Position numbers and translations under genes: made by a program. From IMG/VR virus record IMGVR_UViG_2529293239_000010: a DNA stretch of 49,854 nt; one strand, given 5' to 3'. The DNA comes from a virus (Duplodnaviria; Heunggongvirae; Uroviricota; Caudoviricetes). Shown here piece by piece: positions 1-47,835 of the stretch (positions are counted from its first letter, which is position 1; every line of letters starts with the position of its first letter). The notes beneath the pieces are model-generated. The model did not search any database. It worked only from the letters and a program-made list of their open reading frames with translations, and was not told the DNA's origin.

Positions 1-1131
1 TCAAATGACCAGTTTTTTCCATTCCTTACCGCGTGCGTCGTTGTAAATATCGGTCATTTTTTGATTCGAATGGCCTAGCAAAATTTTGGTATCAACCCCC
101 TGCTCTCTGAACAATCGCTCTGATAAAGATCTCTGCTCATGGAAAGAGGGAGGGGTGCCATTAGCACGCCAGTTGTAATCCACAGAATCCCGGGCTTTTT
201 TAAATGCAACGGTTAATGTTGCTGGCTTAACCATCCCGCCGCGCTTAGCTGTCCCTTTCGCGTGATGGTGGTGCAATAGCCACGGACTAAGAACGCAATC
301 GCGGCAGGATGACACCACATCATCCAGGGTGAGATTTAATTTATCGCAACGCAGAGCCAGAGGGATGGCAATCCGGGTTCCTGTTTTTTGCTGTTCGACA
401 TGAAGATAACCATCCCGGATATCCGAAAATTGCATTTTGCAAATATCTGAAAGGCGCTGGCCTGTCATCAGTGCCAGCAGCATACCGCGCTGTAAAAAGT
501 AACCATCCTTTTCCGCTGCGTTATAAATCATCATCCACTCATCAAAAGTCAGTCGCTGTCTTGATATCCGCACCTGCGGTTTTTTTGCCGATTCTGCAGG
601 GTTAAAGCCTGGCGGGACATCGCCCGTTTGCTGAGCTTCCCGGAAAACATCGATCAGTACTTTCCTGAAAATTTGTCCCATTCTGTTATGTCCTCTGGCC
701 TTGTACTCTTCCAGTACTGATACCACATCTTTTACGGTTATGGCATCTAACCGTCTGGTGCCAAAACGTTCATCAAATACCCTGAGAGGGGCCGCTTTCT
801 GTTTCAGCGTGTTGAGTTTGATCTCGCCGTTTTCATATCTTTCCTGTTGAATTTTTCTGTAATTATTCAGAAAAATGGTAACAGTTGATGAACCGCCGGT
901 ATCACTAATAATTTTCTCCTGCAGACTGAGCATTTGTTCCATTTGCTGCCGGGCAAGACGGCTGTTCGCTTCTGCTGCAATAGTTTCTGCCAGTTTCTGG
1001 TCAATACTGCCGAGACCGTGATTTTTGCCTGTTATGGGATGCCTGTAACGCCAGTAAACTTTGTTATTTCTTTTGTCAAAATACGGAGATAATCCCGGAA
1101 CATCGGTTTTATATTTTCGCGGGCGCGCCAT
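1..1131 (-). CDS. int: Phage integrase, tyrosine recombinase family
   Basis: 376-aa ORF with integrase-like N-terminus and C-terminal catalytic region (R...HxxR...Y context near LGHSNQKMTDIY); sits at the prophage edge next to an excisionase, as in lambdoid prophages. Its stop codon lies at window positions 1..3. Confidence 0.85.
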   Translation of the reverse strand: MARPRKYKTDVPGLSPYFDKRNNKVYWRYRHPITGKNHGLGSIDQKLAETIAAEANSRLARQQMEQMLSLQEKIISDTGGSSTVTIFLNNYRKIQQERYENGEIKLNTLKQKAAPLRVFDERFGTRRLDAITVKDVVSVLEEYKARGHNRMGQIFRKVLIDVFREAQQTGDVPPGFNPAESAKKPQVRISRQRLTFDEWMMIYNAAEKDGYFLQRGMLLALMTGQRLSDICKMQFSDIRDGYLHVEQQKTGTRIAIPLALRCDKLNLTLDDVVSSCRDCVLSPWLLHHHHAKGTAKRGGMVKPATLTVAFKKARDSVDYNWRANGTPPSFHEQRSLSERLFREQGVDTKILLGHSNQKMTDIYNDARGKEWKKLVI

Positions 1132-4467: not shown

Positions 4468-4923
4468 TGTTTTTGGTTTTAACTGTTCCGCGTGCGCTCA
4501 GCCGCATTCACCACATCACAAAATTCACTTTAAAAAGGGCGGCAGAGCAGTCACGGAGTAAAACTGATACCGCCAAACGTCACCAGAAAATTGATAACAG
4601 AGGGCGTTGCAGCGGGGTTGTCACTTAAGCGTATGGTCAACCTGACAACTCGGTGTCCTCAACGGGGAAGGAATAACCCCGCCATACTTACCGCCGCGCC
4701 ATTTCGCGGATTGCCACAACCGGAAACGCACGGTCGACGAAAATTTAACGACAGGCTATCTATGAACCAGCTACCTCGCCGGGCGCTTTCGCGTTATGGT
4801 CTGACTTTTCAGGGAAATATCCTTTCAGTAAACTGTCAGTGCCGGATGCTCACCCGTGTCCGGCGCACGCACTCCACCTCACCCGTGGAGAACTCCTTAA
4901 TCACCAACCCTCAGGAGGGTGAA

Positions 4924-20577: not shown

Positions 20578-21015
20578 ATGAACCGCGTACTGTGCGTGGT
20601 CATCATTGCCCTGCTGGTGGCCTGTGGTGCGCTTAGTCTGGGGCTGAATCATTACCGTGATAACGCCATAACCTACAAAGAGCAGCGCGATAAAGCCACA
20701 TCCACAATCGCTGATATGCAGAAGCGTCAACGTGACGTAGCAGAACTCGATGCCAGATATACAAAGGAGCTTGCTGATGCTAACGCGACTATCGAAAGCC
20801 TCCGTGCTGATGTTTCTGCTGGGCGTAAGCGCCTGCAAGTCGCCGCTACCTGTGCAAAGTCAACGACCGGAGCCAGCGGCATGGGCAATGGAGAAAGCCC
20901 AAGACTTACAGCAGATGCTGAACTCAATTATTACCGTCTCCGAAGTGGAATCGACAAGATAACCGCGCAGGTCAACTACCTGCAGGAGTACATCAGGACG
21001 CAGTGCTTAAAATAA
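20578..21015 (+). CDS. Rz: Rz i-spanin
   Basis: 145-aa ORF with N-terminal transmembrane anchor and coiled-coil-like periplasmic domain; contains an embedded +1-frame lipoprotein gene. Confidence 0.8.
   Translation: MNRVLCVVIIALLVACGALSLGLNHYRDNAITYKEQRDKATSTIADMQKRQRDVAELDARYTKELADANATIESLRADVSAGRKRLQVAATCAKSTTGASGMGNGESPRLTADAELNYYRLRSGIDKITAQVNYLQEYIRTQCLK
20777..20962 (+). CDS. Rz1: Rz1 o-spanin lipoprotein, embedded in Rz in the +1 frame
   Basis: AAGGAG Shine-Dalgarno 7 nt upstream of ATG 20777; signal peptide with lipobox LLGVSAC; proline-rich mature part. Confidence 0.7.
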   Translation: MLTRLSKASVLMFLLGVSACKSPLPVQSQRPEPAAWAMEKAQDLQQMLNSIITVSEVESTR

Positions 21016-21052
21016 TTTTAATTTCACTGAAATTTAATACGTGACTTTCAGG

Positions 21053-21081
21053 AAAATGCCTCGCAGATGCGGGGCATTTTT
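21053..21081 (+). terminator. Hairpin terminator after the lysis cassette
   Basis: ATGCCTCGC...GCGGGGCAT stem followed by TTTTT. Confidence 0.45.
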
Positions 21082-21405
21082 GTACAGGTATTTCACCGCG
21101 CACCGCAGTGCACTCAACCACGTCGAACCAAACCCTTTGGAATGAGCCTTTGAGTAGTCAGTTAGTGCTGGTGAGCCTTGACGGGCTGATCTCCTATGCA
21201 GCAAAGGTTCATCTCAAAGTAAGGCGAACGCTATGACAAACCAAGATTCTATAGACCTATCTGATCTTCGTGGAATGGTCAGTTTTCCAGACAAAAGGTA
21301 ATCACCATAGTCGTATGGCTATGAATCTTGTTGCTGCAGATAAGCATTTTGTGAACCGCCCCGGGAATCCTGGAGACTAAACTCCCTGAGAAAGAGGTAA
21401 ACAGG

Positions 21406-21732
21406 ATGACTAAAAATACTCGTTTTTCCCCCGAAGTCCGTCAGAGGGCGATTCGTATGGTTCTGGAAAGTCAGGGCGAATATGACTCACAGTGGGCGGC
21501 AATTTGTTCCATTGCCCCAAAGATTGGCTGTACACCGGAGACTCTGCGTGTCTGGGTACGCCAGCATGAGCGGGATACCGGAGGCGGTGATGGCGGGCTC
21601 ACCACCGCTGAACGTCAGCGTCTGAAAGAGCTGGAACGTGAAAATCGTGAACTGCGCCGCAGTAACGATATCCTTCGCCAGGCTTCCGCTTATTTTGCGA
21701 AGGCGGAGTTCGACCGCCTCTGGAAAAAGTGA
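21406..21732 (+). CDS. IS629 transposase OrfA (HTH)
   Basis: 108-aa [24 protein letters not shown]... with leucine-zipper-like C-terminus, typical IS3-family OrfA. Confidence 0.85.
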
Positions 21733-22619
21733 TGCCACTGCTGGATAAGCTGCGTAAGCTGTACGGGGTCGGACCGGTATGCAGTGAACTACATATTGCC
21801 CCGTCAACGTATTACCACTGTCAGCAACAGCGACATCATCCTGATAAACGCAGTGCCCGTGCGCAGCGCGATGACTGGCTGAAGAAAGAGATACTGCGCG
21901 TATACGATGGGAATCATCAGGTATACGGTGTGCGTAAAGTCTGGCGTCAGTTGTTACGGGAAGGTATCAGAGTGGCCAGATGCACTGTGGCACGTCTCAT
22001 GGCGGTTATGGGACTTGCCGGTGTTCTCCGGGGTAAAAAGGTCCGTACGACCATCAGCCGGAAAGCCGTTGCCGCAGGCGACCGCGTAAACCGTCAGTTC
22101 GTGGCAGAACGACCTGACCAGCTGTGGGTGGCTGATTTTACTTACGTCAGCACATGGCAGGGCTTCGTCTATGTGGCGTTCATTATTGATGTGTTTGCCG
22201 GATACATCGTGGGGTGGCGGGTCTCATCGTCCATGGAAACGACATTCGTGCTGGATGCTCTGGAGCAGGCGTTATGGGCCCGTCGACCGTCCGGCACGGT
22301 CCATCACAGTGATAAAGGTTCTCAGTATGTATCGCTGGCCTACACACAGCGGCTTAAGGAAGCCGGATTACTGGCATCAACAGGAAGTACAGGCGACTCG
22401 TATGACAACGCGATGGCGGAGAGCATCAATGGTCTTTACAAAGCGGAGGTAATACACCGTAAGAGCTGGAAAAACCGTGCAGAAGTGGAACTGGCCACAC
22501 TCACGTGGGTGGACTGGTATAATAATCGACGATTGCTGGAAAGGCTGGGCCACATCCCTCCGGCAGAAGCAGAAAAAGCTTATTATGCTTCCATCGGAAA
22601 CGATGATCTGGCAGCCTGA
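21729..22619 (+). CDS. IS629 transposase OrfB (DDE catalytic domain), normally made as an OrfAB fusion by -1 frameshift
   Basis: 296-aa ORF overlapping orfA in the -1 frame; DDE integrase-core region (WVADFTYV..., HSDKGSQY..., [10 protein letters not shown]). Confidence 0.85.
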
Positions 22620-22744
22620 GTTCACAGATAAAACACTCTCCAGGAAACCCGGGGCGGTTCATTGTGATTGAAGTGGTCAAATCTCTCAAATGCAGTAAAA
22701 TGCAGTGCGCTATAATTCAATAACGGAGGGAGTAAGGAGAAGTC

Positions 22745-23365
22745 ATGAAAGATCAAGATGTTAGGTTCGCGGTGCATCATAAGCTTTTGAAAGAATCGCA
22801 TTTAGATCCAGACTGCCTTGTGGTCGATGAATTTTCCATATCCCTTGGCGCCAGTAGAGCAGACATTGCTGTAATAAATGGTGTTATACACGGGTACGAG
22901 CTCAAAAGTGAATATGACTCTTTGGAGCGTTTGCCTCTTCAAATCAAGCATTATTCTTCTGTAATGGACAAGGTTACTCTTGTCGTAGCTGAGAAACATC
23001 TTGAGGGAGCATTAAAGTTAATCCCAGGTTGGTGGGGCGTTAAAACGGTTTCTGTTGGGCCAAAAGGCGCCATTCTTATAAAGCACATGCGTGGAGAAAA
23101 GCTTAATCGAAACCATGACACATTGATGCTCGCTCAATTGCTTTGGAAAGATGAATGTATCGACGTACTTGAACGATGGGGCTATTCCAAAGGAATCAAA
23201 AGCAAGCCCCGATTTGAGTTATGGAATATTATTGCGGAAAATATTCCAATAGCGAATCTCAGGCTTGAAGTCAGAACAGCCTTAAAGAAACGCGTAGGCT
23301 GGAAAGTTAAGGCTTGGCAGGCTGAGTCTGCGCCAACCAATAAAGCTGTCTCACGACTAACGTAA
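22745..23365 (+). CDS. Cargo protein A (206 aa), unknown function, with PD-(D/E)xK-like nuclease motif
   Basis: Strong Shine-Dalgarno GGAGGGAGTAAGGAG and TATAAT box upstream; motif VVDEF...RADIAVINGVIHGYELKSE fits a restriction-endonuclease-like D...ExK core; AT-rich relative to flanking phage DNA. Confidence 0.6.
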   Translation: MKDQDVRFAVHHKLLKESHLDPDCLVVDEFSISLGASRADIAVINGVIHGYELKSEYDSLERLPLQIKHYSSVMDKVTLVVAEKHLEGALKLIPGWWGVKTVSVGPKGAILIKHMRGEKLNRNHDTLMLAQLLWKDECIDVLERWGYSKGIKSKPRFELWNIIAENIPIANLRLEVRTALKKRVGWKVKAWQAESAPTNKAVSRLT

Positions 23366-24374
23366 TATGGTGCGTATGTGCAACTTTACGCCATTCTTTA
23401 GAGCCGCCAGATTTGTTAGCGCCTAATGATCTTTGGTAAATGTAATCATCCCCCCAACTAAATTTGGAACCAAAGACTTGATACTCTGGCGAACTAACAA
23501 GGGTAGTACATAAGTTTTTAGTTTGGCCCCATCCATTTCCTTTAACTGCGGTACCTTTTACAAAGATCCATGAGGTATCGTTCGAATATCTCACTGAGAC
23601 ATACTGAGACATGAAGCGTGGGTCTACGCTCGTAATGGTAGAGCTAGCGGTGGGATAATCACTAAAACTTGGCGTTCTTCCATTGCTAAAATTCTGTACT
23701 ACGTACATCCAAAGATCGTATTCATGGCGCGGAATATGATGAACTTGATGTTGCGGTATCCCTGCCTGTGATGCTGGGTATGCGGTTGAAGATAAAATCA
23801 AGTTTCTCCACGGAGCTTGGCCTGATAATGTGTTGACCATGCTTAATGCTTGTTGTTTTAAACTATCAGTTGCGTTTTGAATATCTCCAAAATCAATGAT
23901 TACATCAATTAAACTAGGATGAATATTTAAGTGGTTAACCAGACTTGTGAATTGGTGCCATGTCTGGGGGGTGATAGATATAGCGAGCCCATTGATTAAG
24001 TTGCGTTGAACAGCATGTATATAGTTTGTTGAATATGCGGGAGAAACAACAGGGATAATTTCCTTACCATTTACTCTAGCATCTTGGATACACATATCTA
24101 GAGGATGATGGCGGCTCGAACCATGTTTATCTAAATATTTAACATCCAGCAAAACAGGACGATTGGCTTTCCAGGATGCCGCAAGGTTAATACCGAAGTC
24201 AGATAAGTAAGAACTCAAACTCTTCTTGTAGCATTCGTTTTCATAATCCCAGTCTATGTCTGGAATGGTAATGATCGGAGTAAAACCAGAGAGCGTAGTT
24301 TGATCTAAAAGCATCAGAGATTCATATTCAGCAGGCTTCCATTTCAGCTGTGGATAATATTGATGTTGACTCAT
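23307..24374 (-). CDS. Cargo protein B (355 aa), unknown function, convergent partner of cargo protein A
   Basis: AAGGAG Shine-Dalgarno upstream of the ATG at 24374; 3' end overlaps that of gene A by 59 bp; AT-rich; no motif I can assign. Confidence 0.6.
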   Translation of the reverse strand: MSQHQYYPQLKWKPAEYESLMLLDQTTLSGFTPIITIPDIDWDYENECYKKSLSSYLSDFGINLAASWKANRPVLLDVKYLDKHGSSRHHPLDMCIQDARVNGKEIIPVVSPAYSTNYIHAVQRNLINGLAISITPQTWHQFTSLVNHLNIHPSLIDVIIDFGDIQNATDSLKQQALSMVNTLSGQAPWRNLILSSTAYPASQAGIPQHQVHHIPRHEYDLWMYVVQNFSNGRTPSFSDYPTASSTITSVDPRFMSQYVSVRYSNDTSWIFVKGTAVKGNGWGQTKNLCTTLVSSPEYQVFGSKFSWGDDYIYQRSLGANKSGGSKEWRKVAHTHHITLVVRQLYWLAQTQPAKP

Positions 24375-24597
24375 TAAAACTCCTTAAAATCTTTACTTAT
24401 CCTAAGTATAGTGTTATGGCGTAACGCCAATTGTTTTTATACACTTGAAAACATTGGGAAAAGTTGAGCTATATCTAAATTTACAAAATTGGATGTTATA
24501 GAAATCGAGGTTTCAACTAGGCATGGAACTGCAAAATTTTTAATGCCTGCACGCGAAAGTCGTTGGCGGGTCCTTTCCGGTGATCCAGACCGTTACG

Positions 24598-24786: not shown

Positions 24787-25306
24787 ATGGAAGTCAACAA
24801 AAAGCAGCTGGCTGACATTTTCGGTGCGAGTATCCGTACCATTCAGAACTGGCAGGAACAGGGAATGCCCGTTCTGCGAGGCGGTGGCAAGGGTAATGAG
24901 GTGCTTTATGACTCTGCCGCCGTTATAAAATGGTATGCCGAAAGGGATGCTGAAATTGAGAACGAAAAGCTGCGCCGGGAGGTTGAAGAACTGCGCCAGG
25001 CCAGCGAGGCAGATCTCCAGCCAGGGACTATTGAGTACGAACGCCATCGACTTACGCGTGCGCAGGCCGACGCACAGGAACTGAAGAATGCCAGAGACTC
25101 AGCTGAAGTGGTGGAAACCGCATTCTGTACTTTCGTGCTGTCGCGGATCGCAGGTGAAATTGCCAGTATTCTCGACGGGATCCCCCTGTCGGTGCAGCGG
25201 CGTTTTCCGGAACTGGAAAACCGACATGTTGATTTCCTGAAACGGGATATCATCAAAGCCATGAACAAAGCAGCCGCGCTGGATGAACTGATACCGGGGT
25301 TGCTGA

Positions 25307-25332
<26 letters not shown>
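24787..25332 (+). CDS. nu1: Terminase small subunit Nu1
   Basis: 181-aa product MEVNKKQLADIFGASIRTIQNWQEQGMPVLRGGGKGNEVLYD... is recognisably lambda gpNu1. Confidence 0.95.
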
Positions 25333-29013
<3,681 letters not shown>

Positions 29014-47251: not shown

Positions 47252-47835
47252 TGGCATTCAGAATGAGTGAACAACCACGGACCATAAAAATTTATAATCT
47301 GCTGGCCGGAACTAATGAATTTATTGGTGAAGGTGATGCATATATTCCGCCTCATACAGGTCTGCCAGCAAACAGTACCGATATTGCACCGCCAGATATT
47401 CCGGCAGGCTTCGTGGCTGTTTTCAACAGTGATGAGGCATCGTGGCATCTCGTTGAAGACCATCGGGGTAAAACGGTTTATGACGTAGCGTCAGGGGACG
47501 CGTTATTTATTTCTGAACTCGGTCCGTTACCGGAAAATGTTACCTGGTTATCGCCGGAAGGGGAGTTTCAGAAGTGGAACGGCACAGCCTGGGTGAAAGA
47601 TGCAGAAGCAGAAAAACTGTTCCGGATCCGGGAGGCGGAAGAAACAAAAAACAGCCTGATGCAGGTAGCCAGTGAGCATATTGCGCCACTTCAGGATGCT
47701 GTAGATCTGGAAATCGCAACGGAGGAAGAAACCTCATTGCTGGAAGCCTGGAAAAAATATCGGGTGTTGCTGAACCGTGTTGATACATCAACTGCACCTG
47801 ATATTGAGTGGCCTACGAACCCTGTCAGGGAGTAA
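47251..47835 (+). CDS. tfa: Tail fibre assembly protein Tfa
   Basis: 194 aa starting [54 protein letters not shown], lambda Tfa. Confidence 0.9.

Follow-up and report, generated by a model that had tools for sequence, protein, structure and literature searches.

An IS629 isoform inserted with a TTG target duplication in the leader of a beta/cII-like cassette of a lambda-like Escherichia coli prophage

The window, the whole 49,854-nt stretch of DNA analyzed here, is a lambda-like E. coli prophage of roughly 50 kb (Table 1). Besides the integrase, antiterminator, lysis and terminase genes it carries three tRNAs, a NanS-p-like esterase gene, tail-fibre genes and a lysozyme-type open reading frame whose product name was taken from the matching gene in a related prophage of strain 14EC047. 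The anticodons of the tRNAs are CAT, Arg-TCG and Arg-TCT; after these genes come two tandem copies of the STnc100 small RNA (16209-16399 and 16677-16886), just upstream of the NanS-p-like esterase gene. In Stx phages the toxin genes lie at the position of this tRNA/NanS-p-like region (15884-16886); no stx gene was found there in the window.

The DNA between Rz and cos is a variable slot in prophages of this kind. In DLP12-like and O157 prophages it is filled by bor/iss-ybcV-ylcI, and in an O111 prophage by Rha-IS1203-NleG. Here it holds a cassette whose left edge lies near 21237, as judged by comparison with the O111 prophage, and whose right edge lies near 24560, where thousands of genomes resume matching. 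The cassette was found in 126 of 5,426 E. coli genomes, at 99% identity or more in all carriers, and in the carrier genomes listed its pair of cargo genes has the lysis protein (Rz) gene on one side and the cos/Nu1 region on the other. An insertion sequence (IS) lies about 110 bp inside the left edge of the cassette and ends 83 bp before the start codon of cargo gene A.

Table 1. Coordinates of the insertion, the cargo cassette and the surrounding prophage genes in the window.
Feature	Position	Strand	Basis or remark
Integrase	1-1131		Identified in window
Q-type antiterminator	13388-14209		Identified in window
Rz	20578-21015		Lysis gene upstream of cassette
Terminator-like hairpin + T-run	21052..21081	+	Directly after Rz; dG -22.6 kcal/mol, z -5.05
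Target duplication, left copy, TTG	21349..21351	.	Sequence read; single-TTG empty allele 100% in E. coli genomes
IS3-family element, complete, 1310 bp	21352-22661		Sequence read and repeat finder
Left terminal inverted repeat (IRL), TGAACCGCCCCGGGAATCCTGGAGA	21352..21376	+	25-nt pair; in register with annotated IS629
orfA, 108 aa, HTH_Tnp_1 DNA-binding protein	21406..21732	+	ORF list; Pfam PF01527, E 1.8e-12
ALIL pseudoknot, -1 frameshift stimulator of IS3411/IS629-type elements	21687..21803	+	Rfam RF01497
Slippery run AAAAAG, orfA/orfB overlap	21724..21729	+	Sequence; orfB in -1 frame relative to orfA
orfB, 296 aa, HTH_21 + rve (DDE) catalytic core	21729..22619	+	Pfam PF13276, PF00665 (E 1.4e-27)
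Right terminal inverted repeat (IRR)	22637..22661	-	Repeat pair and terminus search
Target duplication, right copy, TTG	22662..22664	.	Sequence read and reconstructed empty site
Candidate promoter P1, TGGTCA-16 nt-TAAAAT	22674..22701	+	Consensus scan, 9/12
TATAAT box, candidate P2, weak -35	22711..22716	+	Consensus match, 49 nt past IS end
Cargo gene A, sce7726-family, P4 cII homologue	22745..23365	+	NCBIfam NF033832, 184 bits
Cargo gene B, Beta_protein family, P4 beta/PD-lambda-2C-like	23307..24374	-	Pfam PF14350, E 8e-56
Nu1	24787-25332		Identified in window
TerL	25307-27232		Large terminase

The repeat finder returned one long inverted pair, two 25-nt arms separated by 1260 nt and complementary at 23 positions (92%), which delimit the element. 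In the sequence of 21100-23000 the left junction reads ...GCATT-TTG-TGAACCGCCCCGGG... and the right junction ...CCCGGGGCGGTTCA-TTG-TGATTGAAG.... Searching the 49.9-kb window for the 14-nt terminus TGAACCGCCCCGGG gave exactly two matches, which mark the two ends of the IS in opposite orientation; with up to two mismatches allowed, 0.39 matches are expected by chance. No second or partial copy came to light in the window, these two termini being the only matches. The IS and the continuation of the right flank both begin with TGA, so that the direct repeat is formally 6 bp long (TTGTGA); we set the duplication at 3 bp from the known IS629 termini, TGAACC...GGTTCA, which are in register with the annotated IS629. 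The element thus has the length of about 1.3 kb and the imperfect 5'-TG...CA-3' repeats of IS629 within the IS3 family, and TTG on both sides falls within the expected target duplication of 3-4 bp (PMC3271280). The first-pass annotation had called a complete 1310-bp element of IS629 type with both inverted repeats and TTG direct repeats, a reading that is borne out down to its exact coordinates.

Both transposase reading frames are uninterrupted in the ORF list. The orfB product is an IS3 family transposase by NCBIfam NF033516 (310 bits, cut-off 160), and the two proteins carry the domains typical of IS3/IS629, a DDE (rve) core in OrfB and a helix-turn-helix in OrfA. orfA (frame 0) and orfB (frame -1) overlap at a predicted -1 frameshift signal, where the ALIL model is covered over its full length with 116.2 bits (gathering score 50, E 1.3e-29), and orfB is predicted to be expressed as an OrfAB fusion. 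On every sequence criterion the element is apparently intact and potentially competent for transposition.

The two cargo genes downstream of the IS are convergent and share 59 bp at their 3' ends (23307-23365). In PADLOC, gene A hits the model 'cll' (E 4.3e-31) and gene B the models PD-Lambda-2_C (E 4e-32) and 'beta' (E 3.5e-10). Identity to the P4 proteins is 27% for gene A with cII (E 1e-18) and 22% for gene B with beta (E 3e-7). The gop-beta-cII locus of P4 protects against lambda and P1 (PMC9122126), and PD-lambda-2C is a beta-like accessory factor (PMC9519451). As in P4, a beta-family gene, encoding 355 aa in both, converges with a cII/sce7726-family gene next to cos. Unlike in P4, where the toxin gene gop precedes beta-cII, no open reading frame of the cassette matches PADLOC 'gop', for which the P4 gop control scores 4.8e-70, and the part of the cassette upstream of the beta-like gene measures only about 185 bp. 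Furthermore, P4 has a terminator between beta and cII in place of the 59-bp overlap, the identities are only 22-27%, and the host element is a lambdoid prophage rather than a P4 satellite. Judged by its gene content, the pair is a relative of the P4 gop-beta-cII system and not a member of it, with beta-like and cII-like genes found and gop missing. Assignment to PD-lambda-2, which consists of A, an HTH-peptidase B and a beta-like C (Vassallo et al. 2022), was likewise rejected: the C-like protein alone is found, and its partner here is of the sce7726/cII family instead of an HTH-peptidase.

Gene A is preceded by an AAGGAG ribosome-binding site (22732-22737), 7 nt before its ATG at 22745, and by two candidate promoters. 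P1 lies wholly downstream of the IS, its -35 starting 10 nt past the duplication. The second candidate has its TATAAT box at a distance from the IS that the first-pass annotation had correctly put at about 50 bp. Promoter scans returned both candidates identically in the occupied and the empty allele; these calls are consensus matches, and their count is no higher than in shuffled sequence. A heptamer, ATGCAGT, is directly repeated with 10-bp spacing at 22690-22696 and 22700-22706; lying across the P1 -10 and the -35 region of the TATAAT promoter, the repeat is a possible operator.

By the ISfinder convention, isoforms of an insertion sequence share at least 95% nucleotide identity. End-to-end alignment gave 97.33% over 1310 nt to the 'IS3 family IS629' of the Stx2a phage Stx2_499 (LC567824), a GenBank-annotated copy that served as comparator, which places the element above this threshold for IS629. 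The same kind of alignment gave 95.8% (4.2% difference) to the copy in an O111:H2 prophage that PGAP names 'IS1203 family'. The best match in E. coli, at 99.39%, is in the non-O157 strain cM8a from Malawi. The 35 nucleotide differences from the O157-type copy of Stx2_499 (2.7%) are clustered within the first 570 nt, whereas the eight differences from the cM8a copy all fall in IS positions 833-1205 and change a single amino acid, T276I in OrfB. At the protein level, OrfA differs from that of the O157-type IS629 by two amino acids and is identical to that of cM8a; OrfB differs by eight amino acids and by one, respectively. IS1203 and IS3411 have been treated as isoforms of IS629, and IS629 subtypes are 4-5% apart (PMC3271280). 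Taken together with these published definitions, the identities indicate that IS629 isoform is the right name for the element, yet that it is not the O157 allele. It shares with IS629 (isoforms IS1203, IS1203v and IS3411) the length of 1310 bp, identical termini (TGAACCGCCCCGGG...GGTTCA), OrfA of 108 aa and OrfB of 296 aa in 0/-1 frames, the ALIL pseudoknot, the 3-bp duplication and the location in a prophage. It differs from the O157-type IS629 in its slippery run, AAAAAG in place of AAAAAA, and from the comparison copy in starting orfB with GTG and not ATG, and OrfB T276I is private with respect to the nearest relative.

The abundance of IS629 in the O157 lineage had been taken in the first-pass annotation as a hint at the host background. 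This hint does not hold. An O157 origin of the prophage is rejected because the IS is closer to its best match, a non-O157 copy (99.4%), than to the O157-type one (97.3%), because IS629 is widely distributed and because the nearest prophage relatives are non-O157. Of the 5,426 complete E. coli genomes, 3,043 have copies resembling IS629 with at least 80% of the element covered, and the median number of places is 4 per genome. The left arm of the prophage is closest, at 99.4%, to a prophage with an empty site from an O112ab:H8 pig isolate, while for the right arm prophages of many unrelated strains match at about 97%. In the one O157:H7 genome that was inspected, the slot is filled by bor-ybcV-ybcW-ylcI and the cassette is not there. 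The IS629-type copy at 21352-22661 is therefore unfit for inferring an O157 background.

It has been reported that IS629 generates duplications of 3-4 bp with no target consensus and that 62% of the O157 copies lie inside prophages (PMC3271280). In this respect the insertion resembles those catalogued in the Sp and SpLE elements of O157:H7, which likewise hit non-essential parts of prophages, duplicate 3-4 bp and follow no target consensus (PMC3271280), and differs from them in host background, IS subtype and site. Insertion sequences are also seen elsewhere among the relatives of this prophage. In the empty-site prophage of 14EC047 (NZ_CP024155.1), the small terminase gene is interrupted by a different IS3-family element (8522-10383 of locus L001); the large terminase gene of the related prophage in this strain is frameshifted. 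The O111:H2 prophage has its IS1203-family copy downstream of Rz. The IS3-family element in 14EC047 and the IS1203-family copy in O111:H2 together indicate that IS insertions are recurrent in this prophage family. The insertion in the window shows the accessory slot of this prophage to be a landing pad for IS629-type elements.

A match of the 3 bp flanking an element is by itself expected by chance once in 64 cases, and the decisive test is the reconstructed empty site. The empty allele was rebuilt by joining 400 nt of left flank ending in TTG to the right flank, 800 nt in total, and served as the query in a search of 5,426 complete E. coli genomes. At least 14 E. coli chromosomes carry the rebuilt site at 100.0% over all 800 nt as a single ungapped piece, and 125 of the 5,426 carry it at 99% identity or more with full coverage. 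The annotation of these empty-site genomes gives 'lysis protein' followed by 'sce7726 family protein' with no gene between. Comparison with IS-free alleles had been proposed as a check in the first-pass annotation, and it comes out in favor of an insertion, with flanks contiguous and a single TTG in the 125 genomes. Because the empty site was recovered exactly, the element was acquired by true transposition: this is a clean event with a 3-bp duplication, and an assembly chimera is ruled out for practical purposes.

The occupied site was found in none of the collections searched. With the IS and its 400-nt flanks as the query, none of the 5,426 complete E. coli genomes has one place covering at least 80% of it, and an exact 30-mer across the left junction is absent from the GTDB one-genome-per-species contigs, from IMG/VR and from the JGI metagenome contigs. 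The insertion is therefore genuine and lineage-specific, private to one strain or a narrow lineage. These absences also fit the earlier description of the transposition as relatively recent. Since the junction was seen in no collection searched, it is a useful strain marker.

Our preferred reading, to which we assign a probability of roughly 0.78, is that an IS629 isoform landed in the cassette leader of a lambda-like prophage and that the insertion is neutral or nearly so. On this reading, the element transposed into the non-coding leader, about 400 bp long, of a 2-kb accessory cassette and duplicated TTG there; the cassette, a P4 beta/cII-like pair, fills the variable slot between Rz and cos in this lambda-like E. 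coli prophage. IS3-family elements transpose by a copy-out/paste-in mechanism via a circular intermediate (PMC9330008), and family membership suggests that the copy at 21352-22661 took the same route. The insertion lies upstream of every recognizable promoter element of gene A, and the gene would retain both its promoter and its ribosome-binding site. Physically, the IS would mainly displace the upstream DNA by 1.3 kb and put its GC-rich end in place of an AT-richer segment just before the P1 -35, with at most weak extra read-through from the transposase gene in the same orientation. The prophage itself would be enlarged by 1.3 kb.

It is unlikely that the IS instead raises expression of the cassette or makes it constitutive, either by read-out from the transposase genes or through a hybrid promoter at its right end. 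Gene A shares its strand with the transposase genes, and the region between the orfB stop and gene A is free of terminator-like structure, as no terminator-like site was found on the + strand of 22134-22811 and no stable structure in 22610-22750 (z +1.15); read-out into gene A is therefore possible. However, orfB translation ends 125 nt before gene A, and read-out is likely to be weak, as elements of the IS3 family have weak native promoters; in IS911, a member of this family, the indigenous promoter is about 40-fold weaker than the junction promoter (PMC9330008). A hybrid promoter, which the first-pass annotation had also considered, would have precedent in some IS3-family elements, whose IRR holds an outward -35 able to form fusion promoters (PMC9330008). 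Here it is not supported, because no -35/-10 pair using the IS end reaches even 7/12 in standard or relaxed scans of the right junction, and because both candidates for gene A lie downstream of the duplication and are unchanged between the alleles. Our literature search returned no specific report of an outward IS629 promoter or of IS629-driven downstream activation.

Lowered expression is a still weaker candidate. The IS would in this case cut the gene A promoter off from lysis-gene read-through or from an upstream activating element, by which we mean an UP element, an activator site or a small leader ORF. Its proximity to the P1 -35, only 10 nt, speaks for such an effect, as does the fall in A+T content of the 25 nt upstream of that -35 from 64% in the empty allele to 44% in the IS end of the occupied one. 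This change could matter only if the DNA acts as an UP element, and an UP element or activator site upstream of 22662, if present, may have been displaced by the IS; no activator site was identifiable. The empty allele also has a 31-codon ORF, MAMNLVAADKHFVIEVVKSLKCSKMQCAIIQ, that runs across the insertion point from an ATG at 21317 to a TAA at 22720 (21317-21351 joined to 22665-22722), ends just before the ribosome-binding site of gene A and is split by the IS. It lacks a convincing ribosome-binding site and is not annotated by PGAP in the IS-free 14EC047. The frames across the insertion point, namely this one and an antisense frame of 69 codons, which are the only two, were judged unlikely to be genes. 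As to read-through, the hairpin and T-run directly after Rz are present in both IS-free and IS-bearing alleles and conserved in the O111 prophage, so that in the lysogen the cassette would already be insulated from upstream transcription before the IS arrived. The earlier suggestion that the IS uncouples the cassette from late-operon read-through is disfavored by the sequence, as the hairpin separates the two in either allele. During lytic growth of lambda, Q-modified polymerase ignores terminators, and under Q antitermination the late operon would still be read through both hairpin and IS.

An assembly artefact, with a repeat collapsed or misplaced, is exceedingly improbable. Although multicopy IS629-like repeats are classic breakpoints of short-read assembly, taking out the IS and one TTG leaves flanks that run on without a break in 125 other genomes, and exact canonical termini with a 3-bp duplication are a signature that a misjoin would not give.

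Returning to the near-neutral insertion, this is a routine IS629 insertion in a prophage, made by an IS already known and belonging to a well-documented kind of event; the sequence gives no sign of a change in cassette expression. Its importance beyond annotation is small. The sole possibility of biological interest is altered expression of the beta/cII-like cassette, and we consider it improbable that the IS, 10 nt before the cassette -35, adaptively rewires lysogenic expression of this gop-less pair. Such rewiring could proceed by weak constitutive read-out or by loss of an upstream control element or the leader ORF. If true, the consequence would be a change in how the prophage affects its host, in a phenotype of the superinfection-exclusion or toxin-antitoxin-like type.

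On the minus strand, the right junction creates a promoter-like TTGAGA-17 nt-CACAAT (22661-22689) that points into the IS and whose CACAAT -10 uses the last IS base. It is followed, within IRR, by a small terminator-like hairpin (22640-22652, minus strand); both are consensus-level features. Elsewhere in the window, Rfam matched DicF (4537-4588, minus strand), a sok-like antitoxin RNA (11188-11363, plus strand) and IS009 (47594-47792, plus strand), the last inside a tail-fibre assembly gene. All three are taken to be usual RNA features of lambdoid prophages.
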